Shown here: in pieces, positions 11,842-49,044 of the stretch
Position numbering within the stretch: the first letter of the stretch is position 1
How the letters are laid out: every line of letters starts with the position of its first letter
Assembly: GCA_964351175.1 (NCBI GenBank)
Contig: CAYGNU010000001.1
Coordinates: 1-49,044 of the forward strand
Source: an uncultured Roseivirgaceae bacterium
Lineage (GTDB): Bacteria > Bacteroidota > Bacteroidia > Cytophagales > Cyclobacteriaceae
Direction: 5' to 3'
DNA: 49,044 nucleotides
Translations under genes and position numbers: made by a program
Notes under the pieces: generated by a model
Told to the model about the DNA's origin: nothing
The model's input: the letters and a program-made list of their open reading frames with translations, nothing else
The model's database searches: none

Positions 11842-11939
11842 GGTTTCTTCCTTTGTTTGTAAGTTACTAAATTAAATAGTGAATAATAAATATTAACTTT
11901 TTAATAAAATATTCCTTTAATATCTTGTTTTATAACTCA

Positions 11940-11957
11940 GGTAATTATATCTTTACC
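11940..11957 (+). promoter_or_regulatory. GGTAA-N8-TTACC palindrome overlapping a TATCTTTA (-7-like) promoter element
   Basis: ggtaattatatctttacc, 21 nt upstream of ATG 11979; TTG further upstream. Confidence 0.6.
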
Positions 11958-11978
11958 TTACATTAAAGGAATAAGAAA

Positions 11979-12224
11979 ATGAAACACGAAGCTAGAATAT
12001 TAAATAAAGGAGTTTTTTACCTCGTTAATATAGTGGTTATAACTAAAGGAACATCTTCTTTTTTTAACAACGGGCAAAAAATAACCAAAGATGAAATTTT
12101 CGAAGATGTTGTTCTTACAATTGGAAAGCAATTTCAAACAGATGATGAGGCTTCATTGTACGTAAACGGAAAGGAATTTAAAAAGCTTCTAGCTTTTGTT
12201 TCAAAAAATGAATTCACAAACTAA
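11979..12224 (+). CDS. Hypothetical protein (plus-strand moron)
   Basis: Own AT-rich promoter; fills a gap with no minus-strand gene. Confidence 0.6.
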   Translation: MKHEARILNKGVFYLVNIVVITKGTSSFFNNGQKITKDEIFEDVVLTIGKQFQTDDEASLYVNGKEFKKLLAFVSKNEFTN

Positions 12225-20465: not shown

Positions 20466-20496
20466 TTTCGTTTCCTTTTCGTTTCCTTTAATATAT

Positions 20497-20514
20497 GGTA
20501 AAAGTAATATTACC
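20497..20514 (-). promoter_or_regulatory. GGTAA-N8-TTACC palindrome / TACTTTTA promoter element
   Basis: ggtaaaagtaatattacc. Confidence 0.55.
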
Positions 20515-20561
20515 CAACCATAAAACAAAACAATAAACAATATATTTTTTAATATATAAAT

Positions 20562-23168: not shown

Positions 23169-23527
23169 GATGTTTTGTTGGCTAAATACTTTATTAACCA
23201 GTAACCCCACAAAATAACAGAAAGAAACAAGCAAAGAATGCAAACAATTATAGTCATTAAAACTATTCCGAAAATACCTCCTTTATCTATGTGATAATCC
23301 TCTTTACTATCAGCCCAATATGCTTCAGCGCAATGATTTTCTCCATCAACAGGATAAAAAGTTGTATCGATAATCCAATTGATTATTTTCCAATACAGGT
23401 TTTTTCTATCTTTATAACCAACACGAGCAGAAATTGAAACAGAAGGATTCCCTCCGCTTATTGCGTTTCCCAATTGACTAAGAGCAATTAGCAGCCTGCC
23501 AAAATAAGATGAATTATAATCAGTCAT
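23165..23527 (-). CDS. Lysin-adjacent membrane protein
   Basis: LIALSQLGNAISGGNPSVSISARVG...HC motif plus a C-terminal TM. Confidence 0.6.
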   Translation of the reverse strand: MTDYNSSYFGRLLIALSQLGNAISGGNPSVSISARVGYKDRKNLYWKIINWIIDTTFYPVDGENHCAEAYWADSKEDYHIDKGGIFGIVLMTIIVCILCLFLSVILWGYWLIKYLANKTS

Positions 23528-24050
23528 TGAATGTTAATTTAGATATGAAATATTCCCATTTAAAACCAAATCCTGGATCGAACTTTCTTTCAGGGCTTAA
23601 ATCGCTGTGTCTTACGACTTTTTTAATTCCGTAAAAATCGATTATCCCTTGACACATTTTGATAAGTTCTGGATATTGAATAAGTGTGACCCAATCTGTT
23701 TTGATTTTCTTTAGAAATTCATCGTAATCATAAGTTCCTTTTACGAGTACTTCTATTCCGATTGAGTTTGTGTTGTATCCTTTAGCGTGCCAACATATTT
23801 CTCTCGTGCTCCTTTGCTTTGTAAAAGATCCATCAGGATGTTCAAGAAAATGACATGAAAGACGTAATAATTTAAGCCACTCATGAGCAGGATATACGCC
23901 TGCTTTTATAACACGTATTACAATTCCTTTTGAATTCTTTATTTCCAGATCTTTTCTTAATCTAACGTTTTCAGCCATAGCATGAATCACTATCATTTCA
24001 GGCTTTTGCGCCCCCCCTCCGATGTAGGTATAATCTTCTAAAACTTTCAT
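23520..24050 (-). CDS. Endolysin, N-acetylmuramoyl-L-alanine amidase (Amidase_2)
   Basis: IVIHAM, SCHF, WHAKGYNTNSIGIEV, VRHSDLSPERKFDPG. Confidence 0.9.
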   Translation of the reverse strand: MKVLEDYTYIGGGAQKPEMIVIHAMAENVRLRKDLEIKNSKGIVIRVIKAGVYPAHEWLKLLRLSCHFLEHPDGSFTKQRSTREICWHAKGYNTNSIGIEVLVKGTYDYDEFLKKIKTDWVTLIQYPELIKMCQGIIDFYGIKKVVRHSDLSPERKFDPGFGFKWEYFISKLTFND

Positions 24051-24114: not shown

Positions 24115-24166
24115 CGATAACACTCAATAAAAGGCATTAAAACGTCCTTTTGTTTTGGTGTTGTAG
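24115..24166 (+). other. attC-like site 1 (52 bp)
   Basis: CGATAAC...GTTGTAG; aacac/gtgtt and aaaagg/cctttt pairing; loop cattaaaacgt. Confidence 0.75.
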
Positions 24167-24190
24167 TGCATTAAAACGTCCGCTTCGCCA

Positions 24191-24394
24191 CTACAACACG
24201 TAATATAAAACATAAAATTATTCACCTTGTTCGGTTCTTAGAGGGCTTAGGTATTTACCATACACCGCCATTAATTTATCCTTTATACTATTGCGTTCTT
24301 CGTTGTTCAGTAATCCTAAACCATCTAATTGCCTCCACGCTGTAATGGCTTTTAATGCTTTCAACTTTTGTTTTTCTTTATCCATAAGTTGTAG
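24191..24394 (+). other. attC-like site 2 (long, weak arms, ORF inside loop)
   Basis: CTACAAC...GTTGTAG; both cores pair with the neighbouring sites; inner arms only A-rich/T-rich. Confidence 0.55.
24218..24385 (-). CDS. 55-aa hypothetical protein inside attC-like site 2
   Basis: MDKEKQKLKALKAITAWRQLDGLGLLNNEERNSIKDKLMAVYGKYLSPLRTEQGE; below the ORF-track cutoff. Confidence 0.6.
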   Translation of the reverse strand: MDKEKQKLKALKAITAWRQLDGLGLLNNEERNSIKDKLMAVYGKYLSPLRTEQGE

Positions 24395-24399
24395 GGCAT

Positions 24400-24537
24400 T
24401 TAATTCCCTATGTTGTACCTAGTCCAGTTGCCGAACTCTTTGTTTATATCTTCAATCAATCCTTGTTTTGTTGTTGATCGGCTGTAAATTGAGCCAATGA
24501 AACTATCTCCGTTATACACTTCTAATTTTGTCCACAT
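24400..24537 (-). CDS. 45-aa hypothetical cassette protein
   Basis: MWTKLEVYNGDSFIGSIYSRSTTKQGLIEDINKEFGNWTRYNIGN; fills the space between sites 2 and 3. Confidence 0.6.
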   Translation of the reverse strand: MWTKLEVYNGDSFIGSIYSRSTTKQGLIEDINKEFGNWTRYNIGN

Positions 24538-24549
24538 AATCAAAACGCC

Positions 24550-24646
24550 CCACAACAAACGCTATCAATGAATCGGGCTTATTAAATTCAGTGATAGTTT
24601 CGGGATTACTCAGGATTGCCCGACTCCTGATAGCTGATCGTTATGC
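24550..24646 (+). other. attC-like site 3 (97 bp)
   Basis: CCACAAC aaac gctatca..tcgggc / gcccga..tgatagc tgatc GTTATGC. Confidence 0.85.
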
Positions 24647-24874
24647 CTTATGTATTTTATCATATTGGCAATTGATAGTCCTGCAAGGTGAAGTCTTAGT
24701 TGAGCAATCGCCACAAGGCATAACACCATGTATGACGCTATTTTTATTTACTAAGTCTTCTATTTCATCGGCTATGTCCTTAATGTAGCCGTTTGGTATT
24801 ACCTGAATCAATCTGCCTTCATGAGACATTGTTTCAGTATATTTTAGTAGTAGTCTTACTATATGCTTATTCAT
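24641..24874 (-). CDS. 77-aa cassette protein with Cys-rich tail
   Basis: Starts in the loop of site 4 and reads through its left arm; its TAA is the TTA of the site-3 GTTA core. Confidence 0.65.
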   Translation of the reverse strand: MNKHIVRLLLKYTETMSHEGRLIQVIPNGYIKDIADEIEDLVNKNSVIHGVMPCGDCSTKTSPCRTINCQYDKIHKA

Positions 24875-24928
24875 AAGTTCTGCTGTTTAAATCGTAAATA
24901 AAACCATCGCATACACTTGTCATTAGAG
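24718..24928 (+). other. attC-like site 4 (right core GTT>ATT)
   Basis: GCATAAC acca tgtatg..ttttatttac / gtaaataaaa..cataca cttgtc ATTAGAG. Confidence 0.7.
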
Positions 24929-25087
24929 TTCATATTTTGGGCTGCTGCGTTTTCTTCGTTTGTTGAACTTTCCTGCACTTACACCATTACAGTTGGCTTA
25001 ATAATCTCACTTCCGTAATACAGCGATGTTTCATCAATAGCTCTATGAATCACTCCACCAGTTTACCTCCTTCGAGTACGCCCAAAA

Positions 25088-25139
25088 CACTAACATTATT
25101 TAAAATGCATTAAAACGTCCTTTTGTTTTGGTGTTAGGC
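25088..25139 (+). other. attC-like site 5 (52 bp, apparently chimeric)
   Basis: CACTAAC...GTTAGGC; 25107-25135 is identical to 24134-24162. Confidence 0.75.
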
Positions 25140-25184
25140 GAAAGCACTACCAGACTGCTAATCCGATAGTGCATTGCTTTTAAT

Positions 25185-25802
25185 TTACTTTTTAATATAG
25201 TACTTAAAAACCGACTTTAATTGTTTGGGGTCTTTAAGAATACTATAATAACATTCATTATTACCCTCAATATAATCAAGGTTTCGGCTTTCCGCTTCCT
25301 CTTTTGTAATTGGAACTCGAACTACATCAATGTAAAATCTTTTCGGCTTAAATGGTAGTTTTACAAATTGACTACTACCAATCAATTCAAAATCTTTATC
25401 ATCAATATAAACTCTACCAGTAAATGTGTCCCAATCTTCTTTTCCTTTCCAAATAATCGCATCCAAATAATAAGGTGGATTTTTTGAGTTCTTGTCTTGA
25501 AATAATGCTGAACATCTTTTGTTTTGATAATAAGGCTCACTGCCATCTCCCATAGCGGAAACATCACTCCATTCGCTTTCGTGTCCAGTTACATCACAAA
25601 TAGGTTCTTGTAGTAACAATTTTTTAACTGCTTGTGAAATTGTAGAAGCTGTGTAAGGTGCTGAACCACCACTTTGTCCACTATTGCCAAATGCTTCACA
25701 TAAGGCAAGGATTTCTTTTGCGAAAGGAGTTACAATCGCATCGGGGACTGTTGCTGCAAGAATATCTAGCTCTTGCTTTGCAAATTTTTGTGTATTTGTC
25801 AT
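25185..25802 (-). CDS. Conserved-looking phage hypothetical protein (cassette cargo)
   Basis: Likely start MTNTQKF; FGNSGQSGGSAPY and YYQNKRCSALF motifs. Confidence 0.75.
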   Translation of the reverse strand: MTNTQKFAKQELDILAATVPDAIVTPFAKEILALCEAFGNSGQSGGSAPYTASTISQAVKKLLLQEPICDVTGHESEWSDVSAMGDGSEPYYQNKRCSALFQDKNSKNPPYYLDAIIWKGKEDWDTFTGRVYIDDKDFELIGSSQFVKLPFKPKRFYIDVVRVPITKEEAESRNLDYIEGNNECYYSILKDPKQLKSVFKYYIKK

Positions 25803-25866
25803 ATTATATATGCGGTTCGCCTTTACACCACAAGGTTCTAAATTTCTACTTTTAATCCGTGCCATC

Positions 25867-25960
25867 GCCTAACACCCAATAAAAAACAGGCTTTAGGAGT
25901 GTGGTGTCTTTGTTCCGAGCTTAGCCTGTAAAGCCCGATTTTTTATTTTCAACGTTAGCG
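25867..25960 (+). other. attC-like site 6 (94 bp)
   Basis: GCCTAAC accc aataaaaaa..ggcttt / aaagcc..ttttttatt ttcaac GTTAGCG. Confidence 0.85.
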
Positions 25961-26283
25961 TTCATTTGCCAACTCTCTCTTAATTCTAATCCTAAGTGAG
26001 CCAAATCACCAATAGTTTTAAACTGATGCAATGCTACTGTTTTATATTTTTTAGAAATATCAGAAACCCATCGCATTCCAATATATCTATCATCTTCAGT
26101 GTATCTCCAATCTCCATCAAACAACACTTTTTCTTCACTTAATGAATTTGAGCATATAAACATTTCTAGTTTTAAAGGTTGCTTTAGAAATTCAGAGTAA
26201 TCCCTTAATTTTTTTAGTTGTTCAACTGCACAACCAGTTTCTATGTTTTCAGAAAGAAATTCATTTAATGTTTTTAGTTTCAT
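25921..26283 (-). CDS. Hypothetical cassette protein
   Basis: Likely start MKLKTLNEF; YSEFLKQPLKLEMFI motif; stop lies inside site 6. Confidence 0.7.
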   Translation of the reverse strand: MKLKTLNEFLSENIETGCAVEQLKKLRDYSEFLKQPLKLEMFICSNSLSEEKVLFDGDWRYTEDDRYIGMRWVSDISKKYKTVALHQFKTIGDLAHLGLELRESWQMNANVENKKSGFTG

Positions 26284-26322
26284 GATGTTATTGTTGTTTA
26301 CTGCCAACGCTACAAAAAGAAA

Positions 26323-26384
26323 CGCTAACAAGGTTTAAAATTCATTCCGCTTTGCTCCACGAAATTTTACACTAATCGTTAGGC
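26323..26384 (+). other. attC-like site 7 (62 bp)
   Basis: CGCTAAC aaggtttaaaatt..ccgctttgct..aattttacactaatc GTTAGGC; loop resembles the CGCTTCGC loop of classical attC. Confidence 0.85.
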
Positions 26385-26668
26385 TTCATATTACCTTCAA
26401 TCATCTCAGTTAGCTTATCTGCTCCTGTCCACATCATCATAAATTCACGCTCGGTATATCCTTTGCTTAGACAGTATTCTCTTATGTACACCTCAATCTT
26501 TTCCTTATCAGGCAACGAAAGCCTAATATCCGATGTAGGTAAATTTTCAGCCTTAGTAAGTGCTATTAATTTATCCTCTAACCATTCTGAATAGTTAGTG
26601 ATGTTTTCGTTCATTTCAGAAAGTCCGTGCTCTGATTTGAACTCTTCTTTTAATTCTTTTCCATTCAT
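26372..26668 (-). CDS. Hypothetical cassette protein
   Basis: 98 aa; reads through partial site 8; stop in the right arm of site 7. Confidence 0.65.
   Translation of the reverse strand: MNGKELKEEFKSEHGLSEMNENITNYSEWLEDKLIALTKAENLPTSDIRLSLPDKEKIEVYIREYCLSKGYTEREFMMMWTGADKLTEMIEGNMKPND
26521..26545 (+). other. Partial attC-like site 8 (left arm only, AAC>AAT)
   Basis: aagcctaat pairs with gttaggctt of site 7; no right arm found. Confidence 0.45.
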
Positions 26669-27177
26669 AATCTTTCATCGTTTAAGCAGGATGAATTTAA
26701 AGGCGATTTAGGTTTTGGCCTCCAATGAGTAGGATTAAAATCTTTGCCTTGTTCACATTTCCATTCAGCATGAGTGTGATAATGGTCTTGCTCATTGTTC
26801 CATTTAGCACTAGTCCAATTTCCATCACCATCAGGAAAGCAAATTCTTATTCCATCAGGATTAAAATCTTCGTCAATCCATTTTTCATTATAACCCAACA
26901 CCTCTTCGTATTCTGGAATTCTTTCTGATACAAGAATCCACTCAAATTCTGACGTTAACTCTAAATTAAACGCCTGCTCGATTATACCGGCTGCATCTTT
27001 AGGTTCTACGTTTTTAGAAAACAGCTTGTTCAGCCACTTATTAAGCAATCCTTCGTTAACATTAACCCAAACCTCGTTCTCATTATAAAAACGTTCTGTC
27101 ATGGCGTCAACTACTTTGTCAGCCCAATAATCAAAACCATCATCGGGAGGGGTGAAATATTTATCTTGATTACTCAT
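26665..27177 (-). CDS. DUF551-like protein
   Basis: Likely start MSNQDKY; EWILVSERIPE...PTHWRPKPKSP. Confidence 0.7.
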   Translation of the reverse strand: MSNQDKYFTPPDDGFDYWADKVVDAMTERFYNENEVWVNVNEGLLNKWLNKLFSKNVEPKDAAGIIEQAFNLELTSEFEWILVSERIPEYEEVLGYNEKWIDEDFNPDGIRICFPDGDGNWTSAKWNNEQDHYHTHAEWKCEQGKDFNPTHWRPKPKSPLNSSCLNDERL

Positions 27178-27211
27178 GGCGTTATTGGGTAAATTGTTGC
27201 TTTGTACTGTT

Positions 27212-27409
27212 TCATGATTTGAATAAACGCCTTCTATTACTGTGCGCTGATTCATTTTTGAAAAATCTTTGATCTTCAATTGAGTTTCCGACTTCCATCT
27301 TTGTTAATTTTTCATGGTAGTCCACCAATCTCATCAGATAGACACATATAGATATTGGCAAATTACTATCTGATATATGACTTTTTAAGTCTTTAAAATT
27401 TGGTTTCAT
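27212..27409 (-). CDS. Hypothetical protein
   Basis: 65 aa, ATGA-coupled to the upstream gene. Confidence 0.5.
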   Translation of the reverse strand: MKPNFKDLKSHISDSNLPISICVYLMRLVDYHEKLTKMEVGNSIEDQRFFKNESAHSNRRRLFKS

Positions 27410-27639
27410 GATTTGAATATTTTAGGTAATCTGTAAGATGTTTTGTCAGTTGCAGCGTTGTAAACTTTCTCAAAAGTGAAGTCAAAAGTTTCATTGTCCA
27501 TGATGAACAAAGCTGTTTTAAATCCTCCCATGTTTACAGCTAGTTTTTCAGTTTCTGAAAAAACACCTTCAATTACAGTTTTACTTGTCATTCCGTTTGC
27601 TGTTGCTACTGTTTCGATTTGTGTTTTTGTAGTTGTCAT
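27406..27639 (-). CDS. Hypothetical protein
   Basis: 77 aa behind the repeated promoter module. Confidence 0.65.
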   Translation of the reverse strand: MTTTKTQIETVATANGMTSKTVIEGVFSETEKLAVNMGGFKTALFIMDNETFDFTFEKVYNAATDKTSYRLPKIFKS

Positions 27640-27705
27640 GTTCGTTTCGTTTAATTATAAGGTAAAGATATAATTACCTTTCCTTTATTCCAAACAAAAC
27701 AGAAT
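27627..27705 (-). repeat. 79-bp promoter/leader module, copy 1
   Basis: 77/79 identical to 34340-34418; TTTG-N20-TATCTTTA, AAGGTAA-N8-TTACCTT, start codons MTTT. Confidence 0.9.
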
Positions 27706-27731
27706 TTATTTTCTGTTTTAATCTAAAATAT

Positions 27732-34127: not shown

Positions 34128-34352
34128 TTAGATTATTATATTAGCTGCTTCATTAAATCTATCCATAGCCCTTTCAAGTGTATCAAAACACTCATCCGTA
34201 GAATCTCCAACATACGTAAATCTGAAATAATTGCCCCCCACTTCCACTCCGTTTATATTAAACGTATGAGTGTAAACCTGAGCCGTTTTGGTTTTGAAAT
34301 AACCACCCATGTTCATTTGTCCTGTTTTTGTTGCTAAAATTGTAGTTGTCAT
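34128..34352 (-). CDS. Hypothetical protein
   Basis: Likely start MTTTIL inside the repeated module. Confidence 0.65.
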   Translation of the reverse strand: MTTTILATKTGQMNMGGYFKTKTAQVYTHTFNINGVEVGGNYFRFTYVGDSTDECFDTLERAMDRFNEAANIII

Positions 34353-34418
34353 GTTCGTTTCGTTTAAATACAAGGTAAAGATATAATTACCTTTCCTTTA
34401 TTCCAAACAAAACAGAAT
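34340..34418 (-). repeat. 79-bp promoter/leader module, copy 2
   Basis: 77/79 identical to 27627-27705. Confidence 0.9.
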
Positions 34419-34437
34419 ATTTCTTTCGAATTAATTC

Positions 34438-34470
34438 AAAAAAATAACCTCCCCGTGAAGGGAGGCTATA
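34438..34470 (-). terminator. Intrinsic terminator after the GHKL gene
   Basis: cctccc/gggagg stem plus A-run. Confidence 0.65.
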
Positions 34471-37902: not shown

Positions 37903-38317
37903 TTGCTGCTCTTTCGAAATTTACGTGCATTGTTCCAAGTTCCTCAGGTAGTGCTCGACGGCTTGACACTAAATTGCCGTCGATATCATAATACCCTGCC
38001 ATTTTTGATTCCCTGTCAATTATAACAAAGACCTCACCTTCCATCTCTATACTCCTTGTTCTGATGGCTTTCATGTGTTCTTTGATTTTAGCAGACAAAG
38101 GATTTAACCTAGCTTTGAATTCTTCTTTTACTTCTTCAAGCTCTTGCTCTGTTGCGTCCTTCCTGATTACGGTGTTTCCTAGTTCCTTGTAATGGAAGTC
38201 AATTTCATCTTCGTTCAATGGCTTTGAGTAGATACTAGTATCTGTCTTTATAGCCATCTCGCGAATAATTTCAGACCTTCTTTCTGAAGGTACGTCTTCA
38301 AATAATCTTTGATCCAT
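37892..38317 (-). CDS. Hypothetical coiled-coil protein
   Basis: 141 aa; GYYDIDGNLVSSRRALPEE. Confidence 0.65.
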   Translation of the reverse strand: MDQRLFEDVPSERRSEIIREMAIKTDTSIYSKPLNEDEIDFHYKELGNTVIRKDATEQELEEVKEEFKARLNPLSAKIKEHMKAIRTRSIEMEGEVFVIIDRESKMAGYYDIDGNLVSSRRALPEELGTMHVNFERAASGN

Positions 38318-38327
38318 GTTTAATATA

Positions 38328-38606
38328 TTAAGAGTTAAATAAATCCGATTGTTTTTCTTCTTTTTCAGGCAATAACAGAATATCGAAATCTGATTCTAAC
38401 CTTTTTGACTGTTCTAAAACACTTTGTCTTCTACTTTTGAAATATTCCTTTTGCATTTCCCTCATTCTTCTTCCTTTAGCAATTATTAAAGCTGCCTTTT
38501 TATGAGATTCTTTGAATGCTTCTATGATAATTTCTTCGGCTTGTGTTTTATTTAAGCTGCCTAATTCAAATTCTTTTAGGGTTGTTTTTAATGTATCTGC
38601 GAACAT
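38328..38606 (-). CDS. Hypothetical protein
   Basis: MREMQKEYFKSR...SKRLESDFD. Confidence 0.6.
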   Translation of the reverse strand: MFADTLKTTLKEFELGSLNKTQAEEIIIEAFKESHKKAALIIAKGRRMREMQKEYFKSRRQSVLEQSKRLESDFDILLLPEKEEKQSDLFNS

Positions 38607-38940
38607 TTTTATTATCTATTAATGCAATTTTAATTTCATACTCGTTCTGAACAGCCAATATTTTCATCCTTGATGTTTGTGTCAATACCCCTTTAGTATC
38701 GACATATTCTGTTCGATTATGATAATTAACCTTAAAATCTAACAAGTAAGTAAATAATAAAAATCCCTTATTACTAAAAATCTTGTAAGGAACTTGATAC
38801 TCTACATTTAAAACACGATTATCAATGCTTGATGACTTTCGTAACAAATCCAACGTTCTAGAATATGATGCTTCAAGATTGCTATCATACTTTCTTCCGT
38901 TGTATTCTGTTTTTCGATTCTTATACTTGCTTTTCACCAT
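38566..38940 (-). CDS. DUF1064-like PD-(D/E)XK endonuclease
   Basis: KYKNRKTEYNGRKYDSNLEA...YLLDF...VDTKG. Confidence 0.8.
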   Translation of the reverse strand: MVKSKYKNRKTEYNGRKYDSNLEASYSRTLDLLRKSSSIDNRVLNVEYQVPYKIFSNKGFLLFTYLLDFKVNYHNRTEYVDTKGVLTQTSRMKILAVQNEYEIKIALIDNKNVRRYIKNNPKRI

Positions 38941-39205
38941 TTATTCCTCTTTTTATAAGGTAGTGAAGCTCTGTTTCGTTTTCTTTTTCGAAGTTTTTTA
39001 AAAGGCCGGTTTGCAAAGTAGTCATTCTCTTTGATAAAGCTTCCATGTCTTTTTTCACACGTTCAATTTCTGCCATTAACAAGATATTTCCGATACTTCT
39101 TTTTAGTTGTTCGGATTTTTGTGATAGCACCTGATGGAGGTGTAAATAGTTATTCGAAAGATAACTGTATTCCAATAACTGTTCAATTTTTTCTAGTTGT
39201 GTCAT
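38921..39205 (-). CDS. Hypothetical protein
   Basis: 94-aa coiled-coil ORF. Confidence 0.5.
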   Translation of the reverse strand: MTQLEKIEQLLEYSYLSNNYLHLHQVLSQKSEQLKRSIGNILLMAEIERVKKDMEALSKRMTTLQTGLLKNFEKENETELHYLIKRGINGEKQV

Positions 39206-39681
39206 AATCCATTATTTATCATTTCAATTAAATGCTCTTCTGGAATTTCGTTTGGCTTTGGAATATACATTCCTTTTTCAGAAGCCCAAACAATAATTCT
39301 ATCTAGATACTCGGTAAAATCTTTCGTCGACATTAATTTGGTTGGTCTAGACAGCTCCTGAACCTTCAAACTAATTTCATTTAAAACTAATAATCCGGCC
39401 TGTGTTACTGCCATATTTTTTTCAACATGGAACTCAGTTTTCAGAGCAAATCTATGTTTAAAATACTCATGAAGCTCCTCGGGGTTTATTCCCGTCTCTT
39501 TACTTATTACAAATAAAACGACACCCCAATAATATCTATTCTGAGGCATACTGCGATTCTTCCTTTTTGAACAGATGTAAACATTATATTCACCGGATTG
39601 CAATACATTCAAAATATAATCAGTAAGTTTTCCAAGTTGGCTCGGAAGGCTTAATGATTTGAAACTCTTACTAACTGCCAT
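39202..39681 (-). CDS. NinB/Orf-like recombination protein
   Basis: RSMPQNRYYWG...ELHEYFK...TKLMSTKDFTEYLDRI...GMYIP. Confidence 0.75.
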   Translation of the reverse strand: MAVSKSFKSLSLPSQLGKLTDYILNVLQSGEYNVYICSKRKNRSMPQNRYYWGVVLFVISKETGINPEELHEYFKHRFALKTEFHVEKNMAVTQAGLLVLNEISLKVQELSRPTKLMSTKDFTEYLDRIIVWASEKGMYIPKPNEIPEEHLIEMINNGL

Positions 39682-40579
39682 AAATACTCATATTAACATT
39701 TGATATAAATTGTTGGCAAATTTTAAGTTCTTCATCTGTTGGGATTTGGTCTTTATTTATTTTCGCCCTGCTCGCTACGAGTCGCTCGTGTGTCGCCTTT
39801 CTTTTGATGGCCTCTTGCTCATTAGGTGGTAAACAATTAAAAAGGCTGACACGGGCTTGTTTTTGCTTTCTTAGTTCTTCAAGATAACGTTCGTTATCAA
39901 TACGCTTTTCCTCTTCTTGAAAAAATTTCTTCCTTGCTTCTTCTGCCTGTTGTTCTTGCTGATGTTTTAACCCATCTTCATAAAACTTTTTAGAATTAAA
40001 TTTACCGTTCTCATTGTATTGAGTATTATCGATTAAATCATGGTCTTTCTGCTTTTGAAGTTGCTTGTTTTGGTTACTGATATAATCTAATTTTTGCAGG
40101 CTTGTATCATAAGCAGTTAGAAAATCGATTATAACATCTCCAGTCAAACGGTCATAAACTTTGCCGTATTTTCCGAGCTTTACTTGGTTAAAGCAGTATG
40201 CAATTTCTTCGATTCTTAAATGCCAAAATGTTTTCGATATTATAGAAATGACCTGCTCGTAATCATACGTCCCCTCTAGAGTTCTTTTACATTTAAAAAA
40301 ATTGACTAAATCGTGTAAAAGCAATTTCATGAAATCGACATACTGTTTTTGATTTTGACTTCTAAGTGCTGACACCTGAAGCCCTTCGCTCATTGCAGTA
40401 TTAAAATCTATTTTGTTCACAAAGAAACTCACGACAGATAGTTTATCAGAAAAAACGTCTTGAGATTGATAACCTTTTGCAAGGCTTTCTTCCTCACGTT
40501 TAGATAAGACCTGTAATAGCTGACCTGCTGGTGTCGTTGAATTTATTGATACTGCCTGATTTGCTTTTTCTAATTTCAT
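39671..40579 (-). CDS. Replication-associated protein (possible helicase loader)
   Basis: Directly after the initiator; LRIEEIAYCF....GKYGKVYDRL; start uncertain. Confidence 0.5.
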   Translation of the reverse strand: MKLEKANQAVSINSTTPAGQLLQVLSKREEESLAKGYQSQDVFSDKLSVVSFFVNKIDFNTAMSEGLQVSALRSQNQKQYVDFMKLLLHDLVNFFKCKRTLEGTYDYEQVISIISKTFWHLRIEEIAYCFNQVKLGKYGKVYDRLTGDVIIDFLTAYDTSLQKLDYISNQNKQLQKQKDHDLIDNTQYNENGKFNSKKFYEDGLKHQQEQQAEEARKKFFQEEEKRIDNERYLEELRKQKQARVSLFNCLPPNEQEAIKRKATHERLVASRAKINKDQIPTDEELKICQQFISNVNMSIYGS

Positions 40580-41228
40580 CTTCAAATACTCTTCTGTAAA
40601 TATAATGATGTGGTCTTGTGATGTAGTTTGGATCATTGCTTGCAGCATATTCAGGATAATGAACCATGATGTGCTCTTTTTCCTTCTGCGACAGCTTTGA
40701 GCCGTCCTTTAATTTTTTCTTTCCAAACCAATATTCTTTCGCTTCTGCTTTACCTGTTTTATGTATAGTTAAAGACCAGAAGTCGTCAAACGTAGGCCAA
40801 AAATCAAGGACGTTATCAGTGCTTTCTCTTTTCTTTTTAGATAGGTTATAGAGATTAGTATTATTGGGTAAAGTTTCTTTACTCCCCTCTGGTAAAGTTT
40901 CTTTACTCCCCTCTAGTAAAGTTTCTTTACCGAGGGAGTAAAGTTTCTTTACCCCCGATAAAGAACTATACTCAACAAAAGTCACTCTATTAACTTCGTT
41001 TACATACCTAATAATCAATCCTGATTCGACTAGTCTTTTTAGGTTGTCTATTATAGTCGGCCTGCTTTTTCCAGTTGCTTTTTCTAAATATCTTAGACCA
41101 CCGGTGTATCTGCTTTCGCCATCCTGAGAAAAGCCGTGTATAATTGAAAACAAAATCAATTCTGTTCCAGAAAGATTGAGTTTATTAATCATCCAACCTT
41201 TAATGACAATGTAATTATCGTCATTCAT
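40500..41228 (-). CDS. Replication initiator (N-terminal HTH, lambda O-like layout)
   Basis: YIVIKGWMINKLNLSGTELILFSIIHGFSQDG HTH; internal iterons; C-terminal FDDFW...K..A...W. Confidence 0.8.
   Translation of the reverse strand: MNDDNYIVIKGWMINKLNLSGTELILFSIIHGFSQDGESRYTGGLRYLEKATGKSRPTIIDNLKRLVESGLIIRYVNEVNRVTFVEYSSLSGVKKLYSLGKETLLEGSKETLPEGSKETLPNNTNLYNLSKKKRESTDNVLDFWPTFDDFWSLTIHKTGKAEAKEYWFGKKKLKDGSKLSQKEKEHIMVHYPEYAASNDPNYITRPHHYIYRRVFEDEIRKSKSGSINKFNDTSRSAITGLI
40868..40952. repeat. Four 15-bp iterons GTAAAGTTTCTTTAC (putative origin)
   Basis: Copies start at 40868, 40892, 40916 and 40938; each has a GTAAAG/CTTTAC dyad. Confidence 0.85.
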
Positions 41229-43285: not shown

Positions 43286-43677
43286 TTCGTTTCTATTAAT
43301 AGTATTTTACAAAGCTTTTTAATTTTTGGGGTTAGATAAACCCTTTCTTTATTGTGTTTCTCTCCACCCCGTTTTCCGTTTATGACATTGCTTATCCAAG
43401 ACAATGAAAACTCAGGATATCGCTCATGGAATGACGTTGCGTTTTTGAAATTAGAGTATATTTTAACTCTAATCAAATCGCTTAACTCAGGCGTCAATTC
43501 CCTTCCCTTTATTGGCTTGTTTTCGGTTTTTTTGATTAAATCGTGTAAATCATCGATGTTACTTTCGTTTTTCAATGAGTTATGAAAATCAATTGTATCC
43601 CTTCCAATAAGCCGAGCGAACCGGCTTATACTGCCATATTTATCCCGTATGACTTTTTTTAATTCAGTGCTATTCAT
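43282..43677 (-). CDS. Putative DNA-binding protein (two HTH-like units)
   Basis: KYGSISRFARLIG; SLSWISNVINGKR. Confidence 0.55.
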   Translation of the reverse strand: MNSTELKKVIRDKYGSISRFARLIGRDTIDFHNSLKNESNIDDLHDLIKKTENKPIKGRELTPELSDLIRVKIYSNFKNATSFHERYPEFSLSWISNVINGKRGGEKHNKERVYLTPKIKKLCKILLIETK

Positions 43678-44410
43678 GAGCTTTCAGTGTTTTGATTTTA
43701 TCGTCCGTGATTATTCCTAATCTTTTAATTTCTTCGATTCCACCGTTAAGGTAATAATTCTTTAATATCTCAAGATTATCAGAACCCATATTTGCGATGA
43801 GGTTAACGACAGGAAATTTGTTCTTGCTTTCAGGTTTTTGGCTTATTACTTTTTCAACAACTAAATCGAAAGGAATATTAATGATAGTTCCTGCCATTTT
43901 TTGAACGCTGTCAAATGTGTCTCTGATTTGAGGAATACTGCTTTTATCGCCTTTTGTTGTAAATTCAAACATTCCGAAAACCCCTTTAATAGCAGGTATT
44001 ATGAACCTAATGGTCAGGATTACTTCCCATTTACCAGATGATTTCATTTTATCTCGGTCTTTTACAGCATCTACAAGGCTGTAATCTTTTCCGTCCCAAA
44101 GATACCAACCCGTTTCATCTCCTTTACCTGTTAATCTACCTTGAGAATCCCTGCACTCCCATCTTTCATCGCAACTATCAGTAAATTCATCGCTGACAAA
44201 AACTATTTGAATTTTTTTAGGTGTCTCACCGTATGCATCTTCAAAGAATTTTTGATACTTACTATCACATCGAAAATAATCAAGACTCACGGGGTATTCT
44301 TTTCCGTTGGCGTTTCTTCTTTTCTCCCCGACCTTTATTTTACCGATACGGGGCAATTTCAGCCCCGTGTCAGTAATATCTCTTTTAATCCGCCCTGTTA
44401 GCTTTCTCAT
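43670..44410 (-). CDS. Recombination-directionality-factor-like / putative recombination protein
   Basis: LPRIGKIKVGEK...YPVSLDYF...IPFDL; sits between exonuclease and ssb. Confidence 0.6.
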   Translation of the reverse strand: MRKLTGRIKRDITDTGLKLPRIGKIKVGEKRRNANGKEYPVSLDYFRCDSKYQKFFEDAYGETPKKIQIVFVSDEFTDSCDERWECRDSQGRLTGKGDETGWYLWDGKDYSLVDAVKDRDKMKSSGKWEVILTIRFIIPAIKGVFGMFEFTTKGDKSSIPQIRDTFDSVQKMAGTIINIPFDLVVEKVISQKPESKNKFPVVNLIANMGSDNLEILKNYYLNGGIEEIKRLGIITDDKIKTLKAHE

Positions 44411-45401
44411 TTTTGTTTTTGATAAATTGGCTTAATTCTATTTTATCGTAAAACTGCTCAATCCCATTTTCATCGGTTATAGCATCCAAATCAATGATCC
44501 CCTCTCCGATAGTTAGAATTCTGTTCATTCTTTTTGACATCTCAATTTTACCAATTGCAGCCAAAAAAGGAAGCTTTTGAATATTTACTGAGTTTGTTTG
44601 GTCTTTAAGATGAAAGGTTGGTTCTGTCTTCCAATCAGTAGGCGAGAAATTGTACATCGCATCAACATGAACACCGAATGTTTCTTTTATCATTTTTGTG
44701 TATGCTGCCAACTGGATCTCGTGCTCTTCATAAAAGCCTTTTTTTCCTGATTTATAATCAACGACGGCTCTTATTGTTACCCAATCTTTCGAAAGTTTTG
44801 GGTCGCCTATTTTACCATATTTCGAATTCGATTTATATGTTTCACCGTGATATCCTTCTTGTAAAACTTGCATCTCGCAATATAAATCAATCGCTCCGGC
44901 TGTATCATACTCATCATCACACAATACCACCTCAATAGCTAGAGGCTTGACTTTATGGGTGTGTACAAAAGAAACAAACGACAGGAAGTCTTTTTTTATC
45001 TCGTTGCTCCAAGATTCGAAAAGCGACATATTTACGTTTTCATCTTGCATATAAACGGACAACTCTTCAATCATTGCAGACAAATCGATTTTCCTGTTTA
45101 TCAAGAGATTTGTGAATTGTGTGTGCATGAAAGTTCCATATAATGCTCGTTCTCTTGCATAAGCTTGAGATTCTTCTTTCCCCATACTTATCATCCAATC
45201 GATTAGACCTTGACCTGTCGGGGTTGTTGAAGAAATCATATTCGTGACACTCATGTAGAATTTAATTTCCCCATCTATTTCACGATAATAAAATCGGCCT
45301 CCTTGATGATTGTTTAGCCGGTAAAGCTGATAATTAGGTGTTACTAAAGCATCCTCATCGAAATAAAGGGCTTTGCATTCTTCTAATGTTAATTTTTCCA
45401 T
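44385..45401 (-). CDS. PD-(D/E)XK exonuclease
   Basis: SVT...GTFMH...E...AGAIDL...VDYKSG...QLAAY. Confidence 0.85.
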   Translation of the reverse strand: MEKLTLEECKALYFDEDALVTPNYQLYRLNNHQGGRFYYREIDGEIKFYMSVTNMISSTTPTGQGLIDWMISMGKEESQAYARERALYGTFMHTQFTNLLINRKIDLSAMIEELSVYMQDENVNMSLFESWSNEIKKDFLSFVSFVHTHKVKPLAIEVVLCDDEYDTAGAIDLYCEMQVLQEGYHGETYKSNSKYGKIGDPKLSKDWVTIRAVVDYKSGKKGFYEEHEIQLAAYTKMIKETFGVHVDAMYNFSPTDWKTEPTFHLKDQTNSVNIQKLPFLAAIGKIEMSKRMNRILTIGEGIIDLDAITDENGIEQFYDKIELSQFIKNKNEKANRAD

Positions 45402-45438
45402 TTTGCTTGCTTTTTTAGTGTTAAAGCTAAATTAAACA

Positions 45439-45471
45439 AAATAGCTAACATTATAATAATGTTAGCTATTT
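45439..45471. promoter_or_regulatory. 15-bp perfect inverted repeat (terminator or operator) beside a TAGCTTTA promoter-like element
   Basis: aaatagctaacatta-taa-taatgttagctattt. Confidence 0.55.
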
Positions 45472-45497
45472 ATTTTTTAATAAAGTTGTAATAAAAA

Positions 45498-46346
45498 TTA
45501 GTTTCTTAAAACCTGAGCTTCTATTGTTTCAAAAACTCTTGCATCCATTTTCCTTCTTTCCTCTATTGACTTACTATTTACTTCGTTGTCAAAAATAAGC
45601 GAATTTATGGCGTTATAAACCAACCACTCGTTCGGTTCTGTTTTTAAAAGTTTGGCCTCATAGTTAACCAAACCCTCAGCAACAGAAACAAGCTTCTTAT
45701 CAAAAACACCTGTCACGCTAATAACCTCGAGGATTCTTTCGTTAAGTTTTTCAACTTTAGTATCGAAAAGAACTTCATATTTTTTGGAGGCTGTTTTAAA
45801 TACATCTCCATCTAAAAGCTCTTTCATAAATATTTTGAAATCAGAAAAGCTTTTTTGCATATTTTCAAAACTGTGTTTCCTTGAAATACTCACAGAAGAA
45901 TAACCGGCTTTTTTCAGCTCTTTTTCGCTTATTGGCATGGTTAACCCGTTTGAGCAAACCAAACGATGAAACCCTAACTCCATTTTGAATTTTAAGCTGC
46001 TGTCGTAGCTGTGTTCTACGTGTATTTGAGGCACTATTTTATCAGTACCTCCACCAATGGTCAACCCTTCTAAATTAAGGTTGTAGTCAGCATAGAAACG
46101 GGTGAAATTTCTGTGTGAGTAACAGGCTGTGAACTCAACACCCATATCATTCAACATATTTTCTATCTCAGGAAATACAAGCTTGTTATTTATAAGCTCG
46201 TAATTCTGTGAGCAAAGGTTCAATAAATGAGGAACCCCATCTATTTCGCCTATCACAACAGCGTTTCTTCCTGCTGTTCCACCGTAACCGATTTCAGTTG
46301 TTGATTTCTTTTCAACGTCAAATAAAATTGTTTCAATTTTGCACAT
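45498..46346 (-). CDS. DUF932-family protein
   Basis: SQNYELINN, HSYDSS, RLVCSNGL, WLVYNA. Confidence 0.8.
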   Translation of the reverse strand: MCKIETILFDVEKKSTTEIGYGGTAGRNAVVIGEIDGVPHLLNLCSQNYELINNKLVFPEIENMLNDMGVEFTACYSHRNFTRFYADYNLNLEGLTIGGGTDKIVPQIHVEHSYDSSLKFKMELGFHRLVCSNGLTMPISEKELKKAGYSSVSISRKHSFENMQKSFSDFKIFMKELLDGDVFKTASKKYEVLFDTKVEKLNERILEVISVTGVFDKKLVSVAEGLVNYEAKLLKTEPNEWLVYNAINSLIFDNEVNSKSIEERRKMDARVFETIEAQVLRN

Positions 46347-48732: not shown

Positions 48733-48989
48733 TTAAATTCCACCTCCATCAGTAATAGGCCAACCATCAGTAATTAAAGATGATCTTGCTGCTCCTGCTG
48801 TTGCAATAGTATAATTTCCGCTTCCACCGTGAAAAGGAACACTTGAATTATGAATATTAGCTTCCCATCCGTTATATATTGAGTCAAGATTTGCTGCGTT
48901 CAATGTTATACCTGAAAACATATTTGTTGCGTTTGTTAGGTTTTGAATGTCCCAACTTCCTAAATCCTGCTCAAAGGCGTGAGCATTCC
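48733..48989 (-). CDS. 3' part of the FN3/DUF285 (BspA-like) protein that begins at 1408
   Basis: AFEQDLGSWDIQNLTN...AARSSLITDGWPITDGG, typical DUF285 cap. Confidence 0.85.
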
Positions 48990-49044
48990 TAAACATTGAA
49001 CTCATATTGGTTACTGAGCTAACATCCCATCCGCTGATGTTTTG
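48990..49044. repeat. 55-bp terminal direct repeat (copy 2)
   Basis: Identical to 1-55. Confidence 0.95.

Follow-up and report, generated by a model that had tools for sequence, protein, structure and literature searches.

What built the array of short hairpins and small genes found around positions 24119 to 26668 of contig CAYGNU010000001.1, which was binned with an uncultured Roseivirgaceae bacterium (GCA_964351175.1)? The window analysed here is that whole contig (C1; 49,044 nt), from a genome bin of 5.2 Mb in 913 contigs. It is a complete 49-kb bacteriophage genome, with terminase, portal, tape measure and amidase genes, all on the − strand, and the recurrence of its first 55 bases at the contig end indicates a circular genome of ~49.0 kb. 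The array lies between the amidase gene and small early-type genes. We found that it is a genuine recombination footprint, and it is probable that exchange at two different cores, performed by a borrowed Xer-like recombinase, reorders its genes and builds chimeric proteins.

An earlier note on this DNA had divided the region into seven units, each bounded by a GTT core and a complementary AAC core, and proposed that they were added by serial site-specific insertion. All seven GTT/AAC motif pairs lie where it had placed them. Two cores are variant, with unit 4 starting with ATT (24922) and unit 7 ending with AAT (26527), and an extra hairpin site, absent from that note, opens the array (24119-24162). 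The parts of the array, including open reading frames (ORFs), are as follows; the inverse core is the AAC one.

24119..24162, + strand: site 0, a short attC-like hairpin (AAC-A ... T-GTT) whose right half is identical to that of site 4
24160..24197, + strand: unit 1, 38 bp, gene-less, conserved in other phages with compensatory cores
24195..24390, + strand: site 1, with a long loop that encloses a whole gene and weak arms (arm fraction 0.12)
24218..24385, − strand: 55-residue ORF in the loop of site 1, family not recognised
24388..24556, + strand: unit 2, called from core pairing, with a 45-residue ORF (24400-24537, − strand), family not recognised
24554..24642, + strand: site 2, an attC-like hairpin (AAC-A ... 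C-GTT); in run X6 another unit follows at GTT
24640..24724, + strand: unit 3, coding for the 27-residue, Cys-rich tail of a 77-residue protein; this tail occurs behind 12 other heads
24641..24874, − strand: 77-residue head-plus-tail ORF, starting in the loop of site 3, with Val51 at the inverse core 24722-24724 and its stop on the first bases of the cassette
24722..24924, + strand: site 3, a long-loop hairpin with a 197-nt body, ending C-ATT; its loop codes for the protein head
24922..25094, + strand: unit 4, without an ORF of its own and with partly decayed cores; likely an unused tail; a relative in run X7 has 6 extra bases
25092..25135, + strand: site 4, a non-folding mosaic, with a left half resembling site 6 and a right half identical to site 0
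25133..25873, + strand: unit 5, a mobile cassette with a Tad3-family gene (ORF 25185-25802, − strand, 205 residues; open from 25865)
25871..25956, + strand: site 5, an attC-like hairpin (AAC-A ... C-GTT) by fold, arm test and strict scan
25954..26329, + strand: unit 6, with a 120-residue ORF (25921-26283, − strand; phrog_12560) that continues across the core and has its stop within the hairpin of the neighbour
26327..26380, + strand: site 6, short and attC-like with a weak fold, near-identical in Maribacter phage Panino
26378..26527, + strand: unit 7, called from core pairing, coding for the tail of a 98-residue protein
26372..26668, − strand: 98-residue head-plus-tail ORF that crosses the last inverse core at residue 48
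26525..26556, + strand: site 7, left arm only, inverse core AAT; in runs X2, X5 and X6 this arm stands behind other sequence

Site 0 could double as a docking site. At the other end, no right arm pairing with site 7 was found. There is a possible decayed right core of this site at 26680, for which no matching unit end was found; the upstream DUF551-like ORF (26665-27279) translates that core as Asn and terminates shortly afterwards, as do the ORFs at sites 5 and 6. A motif-free hairpin scan was discarded as too noisy (94 hits).

The pairing runs across units and not within sites, as the earlier note had proposed. Over the 10 bases after each GTT, 50 of 70 bases pair between the two ends of the same unit, versus 21 of 60 within the sites of the array. 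The true pairing of the units ranked first among all 5040 permutations, ahead of every random combination, and it did so by three measures, namely the number of matches, the length of perfect runs (35, versus a mean of 11 over the permutations) and the duplex energy (−55.1 kcal/mol, versus a mean of −25.4). The pairing of unit 4 is weak (a run of 2), and the cores of units 1 and 2 resemble each other. As the unit boundaries had been picked by eye, independent support was needed. A blind detector called 3 cassettes on the + strand of the 49-kb window, all of them within the array, with 0 calls on the − strand and 1 in ten shuffles. Furthermore, homologous loci break at the identical bases. Folding the reconstituted sites in silico also gave the gain anticipated by the earlier note, which is however not diagnostic of the side that is cut: with the hairpin assigned to the unit on its left, reconstituted sites are more stable by 5-10 kcal/mol in 4 of 6 cases, and with the hairpin assigned to the unit on its right, by 5-8 kcal/mol in 5 of 7. 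As folding improves with either neighbour, the footprint proves recombination but not its side.

An accumulation of terminators, or of inverted repeats arising by chance, has almost no probability as the origin of the array. On the coding strand, a T run comes after the hairpin of site 5, as would suit a terminator, but the terminator scan was at chance level (1 found versus 1.5 expected), and such an origin does not account for cores that co-vary, breakpoints that are exact and pairing that spans whole genes; it is refuted by the homologous loci. Serial site-specific insertion is what these loci support, with complementary, co-varying cores and neighbours that switch exactly at G|TT. No part of the window matched Rfam.

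Reading the array requires knowing which strand is the top one. In other contigs of the bin, arrays of the same kind have sites that read AAC-A ... C-GTT, and therefore the + strand is the top strand in the phage and its genes are antisense. Every ORF of the array is on the bottom strand, and for three of them the start lies within or past the inverse core. If the + strand is cut at G|TT, each ORF of cassettes 1-6 remains in a single cassette, the 77-residue ORF terminating on the first three bases of its own. We rejected the − strand as top strand, because all eight left halves read AA(C/T)-A on the + strand, as in the host arrays, and because that model would split the 77-residue ORF. The orientation differs between sources: unit ORFs are on the top strand in 12 units of the host bin (1 bottom, 1 without ORF), in 1 unit of the viral loci (20 bottom, 14 without ORF) and in 6 units of the metagenome loci (44 bottom, 9 without ORF).

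Unit 5 provided a set of homologous loci. Its product belongs to the same sequence family as Tad3 (PF25185), an inhibitor of ThsB of type I Thoeris, with a Pfam score of 72.8 bits against a cut-off of 27 and a match to the Tad3 structure (PDB 9B7D; E 6e-28) over residues 22-204 of 205. The first 21 residues are not aligned; in Tad3, the N-terminal helices form the contact with ThsB (PMC13728456). Judging from its sequence, the product is likely a Thoeris inhibitor. It has 1195 relatives, compared with 24 for the phage portal; 66 loci, including some duplicates, were compared at the DNA level. The likeness stops exactly at 25133 in 27 of the 66 loci and at most 5 bases away in 5 more; in the remaining ones the sequence is too short or the likeness ends near the stop codon. 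All six core bases are complementary in 27 of the 33 sequences in which both ends were called, with three co-varying variants. The neighbours of the Tad3 unit differ between loci, and the differences begin exactly at G|TT, which is the crossover point of classical integrons. Loci L069 and L070 have the unit and its right hairpin in common with different neighbours, and a 457-nt cassette is present in L083 and absent in L084, which places the cut between the first base of the core and TT. The closest relative of the unit (L068, 94% DNA identity) is flanked by different sequence on its left and on its right. On the Tad3 loci, the detector called 88 cassettes antisense to the gene and 4 sense, with 1 in shuffles.

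The same loci reveal a second type of exchange, at the inverse core AA|C, one that is not anticipated by the classical integron model. The right-hand hairpins of the Tad3 unit vary, the change occurring 1-2 bases after AAC and in both arms together. L083 and L084 are identical in the unit and in its left flank but not in the right hairpin, and L068 has yet another hairpin. Thus, the hairpin does not consistently travel with its cassette, as attC does in classical integrons, although a bias towards G|TT persists: the flanks of 31 sequences (two of them, the truncated loci L062 and L093, mis-called) fall into 23 families on the left versus 13 on the right, which indicates that exchange at G|TT is commoner. 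Misassembly may permute flanks, but it cannot create such joints. IntI acts preferentially on the bottom strand, and when the top strand of a cassette is recombined with attI, the cassette ends up inverted (PMC5027507). The orientation retained here would fit top-strand exchange between two hairpins. An all-against-all count of breakpoints was too noisy, being dominated by breaks within genes, and was not used.

Exchange at the inverse core would join parts of proteins, and two ORFs of the array point to such joints. Among the 21 representatives of the relatives of the 77-residue protein, 8 have its head only, 12 its tail only, 1 neither and 0 both, this last figure being partly built in, as the representatives were clustered at 50% identity and full-length relatives are hidden. 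The aligned junction has V or I in 15 of 20 relatives (counted from the alignment rows), and heads with unlike arm sequences join one tail at the same Val. On these sequence comparisons, the 77-residue protein is chimeric, with its joint at the inverse core. The first 47 residues of the 98-residue protein are common to three proteins, and all three diverge at the core into other tails; just two weak loci were found for this head, and the searches of cultured phages found no loci for either chimeric protein. A match of L094 to 26536-26683 was not confirmed at the protein level and was set aside. In a survey of 123 distinct sites in the fetched loci, 31 of them with long loops, an ORF that starts in the loop crosses the inverse core at 14 of the 31 long-loop sites, and all 14 read the core as Val; the chance level of this frame is not a plain third, as many cores carry a stop in another frame. 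Three ORFs cross the other core: in two of them AAC is an Asn codon and the stop lies in the arm of the neighbour, and the third stops on the core. Site-specific recombination also swaps protein C-termini in frame in shufflons (R64 Rci), where segments are inverted behind one fixed gene; unlike in a shufflon, many heads and tails would here be exchanged between mobile units at single-strand hairpins.

A simpler account is that of an ordinary phage cluster of attC sites lacking an integron integrase (CALIN), in which movement occurs at G|TT only and the inverse-core changes and chimeras come from homologous or microhomology recombination at similar hairpin arms. The left flanks are indeed more variable than the right ones, the hairpin arms form families with common words, the phage encodes recombination functions (exonuclease, SSB, NinB-like protein and resolvase), and IntI strongly favours the bottom strand (PMC5027507). 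We nevertheless regard this account as unlikely: the hairpins change 1-2 bases past AAC between arms that have little likeness, both arms changing together, and heads whose arms are unlike meet the same tail at the same Val.

The two-core reading raises the question of which enzyme acts on these sites, as no tyrosine recombinase was found anywhere in the circular 49-kb contig. On the bin contigs C574, C424 and C772, a GTT core comes after the gene of a XerA-like recombinase, and cassettes come next where the contig is long enough; the strict scan detected 12 further sites on 8 other contigs of the bin, with 0 in a shuffle. Homologues of the C574 recombinase were found in 25 of 120 genomes of the family (E ≤ 1e-90). 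Most have a GTT core about 45-55 bases 3' of the gene, with a first cassette in 6 of the 16 family loci that have at least 600 bases available; no site upstream of the recombinase gene was found in 27 family loci. XerA-like relatives also adjoin such arrays in the viral and metagenome loci L122, L066 and L073. The candidate enzymes score 196-223 bits against the IntI model TIGR02249, whose cut-off of 265 was passed by none of the bin recombinases. The candidate has 12 residues where IntI4 has 56, and the region of about 44 residues that it lacks is that of the I2 helix, which docks the extrahelical bases of attC (PMC7790495). Such XerA-like recombinases would act on the phage sites in trans, and the absence of I2 may loosen the choice of strand. 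The recombinase gene faces the array on C574 and faces away from it, integron-like and divergent, in phage locus L122, where it is on the same strand as the cassette genes. On C548 (L005, L006), two XerA-like recombinases flank an ORF that resembles an IS91-type transposase, judged from its translation.

The modules of the array recur singly elsewhere. Unit 1 is found in 7 viral contigs (8 matches), including that of Nonlabens phage P12024L; the loop that adjoins it carries various genes or none, and in L122 it directly adjoins a recombinase of 277 residues. The ends of unit 6 surround unrelated ORFs in Maribacter phage Panino and in L130, and L131 shares the start of the unit, with a fourth ORF; no loci were found for the unit-6 protein itself. 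Single modules are nearly unchanged in runs of three other studies, with 0 differences over 24195-24387 in an unrelated run and 4 over 25978-26241. The host of the phage would be a Bacteroidota bacterium, given the cultured phages that share its modules.

The conserved ends of unit 6 (25954-25990 and 26310-26329; also in L120 and L130) contain a short direct repeat on both sides of the variable ORF, GCGTTGGCA in L130, as if genes had entered an empty 40-bp unit through a GTT inside it. In Nonlabens phage P12024L (L121:1510-2177), two annotated genes lie between apparent hairpin arms that are separated by 667 nt, and therefore loops may carry small operons. In Polaribacter phage P12002L (L132:29000-33000, 38000-41000), our detector found two arrays that together comprise more than a dozen sites of this family, with several genes that start in loops.

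Several observations weigh against the two-core reading or against activity of the array in this phage. In a comparison of the true arms with 400 random arm pairs, the arms pair well at the sites starting at 24119, 24554, 24722 and 25871 (fractions 0.035, 0, 0 and 0), but those at 24195, 25092 and 26327 do no better than chance (0.12, 0.71 and 0.33), giving four well-pairing and three weak sites within 2.4 kb. Whole-site folding z-scores reach just −1.6 to −1.8 at three sites and are about 0 to +0.8 at two; the folds display bulges. With three hairpins at chance level, two mutated cores and half a last site, the array may be partly dead. No excised circle or rearranged form was found in four runs of the phage's own study, in contigs, which lose rare variants. 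The breakpoint count, noisy as it was, gave no clear case of a hairpin and right-hand unit common to different left units. The phage has zero DNA in common with the other contigs of the bin, which may not be its host. Lastly, amidase, site-pattern and portal searches yielded no close phage relative with an empty or different slot; the portal search covered viral contigs, family genomes and genome contigs, and arrays are absent from the distant portal loci.

Some of these points suit a frozen relic, a block of the same origin that was acquired once from a phage with its own recombinase and no longer recombines here. This addresses present activity only, not how the array was constructed. The window has no recombinase or clear attI, sites 1, 4, 6 and 7 and unit 4 are decayed, excision joints are absent from the four runs, and L122, L066 and L073 are examples of arrays that have an enzyme of their own. 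Conversely, separate modules are almost unchanged in the runs of other studies, sites 2, 3 and 5 remain intact, and both flanks of the closest Tad3 unit are different. We hold a frozen relic to be a real possibility, though less likely than not.

How far is such an array already known? Cassette arrays of integron type in phages are not new: 17 phage CALINs have been reported, including one in Polaribacter phage P12002L (Qi et al. 2023, PMC9892861). IntI1 recombined 5 of 6 phage CALIN sites in that study; two of the P12002L sites were among those tested, and P12002L_attC1 was the exception, with no verified junction. This site has the AAC-A ... C-GTT polarity and the GCATTAAAACG loop found in sites 0 and 4, and thus the published P12002L array belongs to the present site family. 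Phage CALINs share with our array cassettes bounded by attC in a phage without an integrase and a counter-defence cargo (methylases in PMC9892861). Our array has at least two attC-type sites within a few kb, as called by our detector, and no integron integrase nearby. It is a phage CALIN in this descriptive sense and is not part of a classical integron. The accessible part of PMC9892861 names no XerA-like enzyme, antisense or loop-borne genes, inverse-core exchange or protein fusion. No literature on an XerA-like enzyme, antisense or loop-borne genes, inverse-core exchange or head-tail fusion was found in our searches, which left subscription journals largely aside.

With classical integrons, the array shares GTTRRRY/RYYYAAC cores that pair within the cassette, hairpin sites and the G|TT cut. 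It differs in the enzyme, as IntI has the I2 insertion and the candidate has none and scores below the TIGR02249 cut-off, and in attI, which lies beside the integrase in integrons and is absent from the window, although attI-like cores follow the recombinases on other contigs and in L122. Site bodies measure 57-141 bp in integrons (PMC5027507) and reach 190-400 nt or more here; the genes of integrons lie on the top strand between the cores and those of our array are antisense; and hairpins change here at the inverse core without inversion of the unit. In the bin and its family, the chromosomal arrays next to XerA-like recombinases (NF040815-like) have the identical site anatomy, with genes on the top strand within the units, unlike the phage array. 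Our literature searches found no description of these Bacteroidota arrays, and IntegronFinder 2 reported one complete Bacteroidetes integron, in Salinibacter (PMC9024848).

Beside the array, the amidase gene is its downstream neighbour in the direction of transcription:

23520..24050, − strand: amidase endolysin (PF01510)

A 13-nt direct repeat at 24020-24032 (start of the amidase gene) and 26529-26541 (arm of site 7) flanks the array and was treated as chance. Elsewhere in the genome, the region 43670-46346 encodes a gp3-like recombination directionality factor, a Cas4-like exonuclease and a DUF932 protein, without an integrase. A 102-bp direct repeat (27627-27728 and 34340-34441, 89% alike), with related copies at 11939-11982 (inverted) and 20470-20552, ends in the identical first codons of two − strand genes and resembles a module of phage promoter and gene start present in several copies; it is a branch point of contigs in runs X1 and X2. 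A DUF285 repeat gene with 75-nt repeats spans the circular junction (48733-49044 plus 1-340).

In the mechanism that we propose, the array consists of integron-type cassettes without an integrase, and an XerA-like tyrosine recombinase would be supplied from outside, by the host chromosome or another phage. A cut at G|TT would mobilise a unit along with its right-hand hairpin, so that no gene is split. At AA|C, where cuts would be less frequent, a hairpin would move along with its right-hand unit, and a head encoded in the loop would thereby gain a new tail. Owing to the missing I2 insertion, the enzyme would choose between strands less strictly than IntI does. The array itself would serve as an accessory-gene slot, which now holds a likely Thoeris inhibitor. 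More broadly, and with somewhat less assurance, we lean towards the view that in Bacteroidota phages an Xer-type recombinase devoid of I2, cutting the cores of both strands, acts as a combinatorial builder of proteins, with loops as heads, 'empty' units as tails and the inverse core as an in-frame Val joint, while the other core reorders whole genes such as Tad3.

If this is true, many small 'hypothetical' proteins of Bacteroidota phages would be chimeras whose heads and tails were joined by a site-specific enzyme, and their clustering and annotation would have to change accordingly. A tyrosine recombinase that handles hairpin sites without I2 would be a testable intermediate in the evolution of integron integrases. 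Conserved empty units taking up unrelated genes would show the birth of cassettes, and such units, together with the constant unit ends that surround unrelated genes, would offer a handle on the open question of where cassettes originate. Cultured phages that carry these modules are available in Panino, P12024L and P12002L. Phages would load anti-defence genes by the same cassette chemistry as their hosts, and their arrays would provide a short list for new counter-defence proteins.

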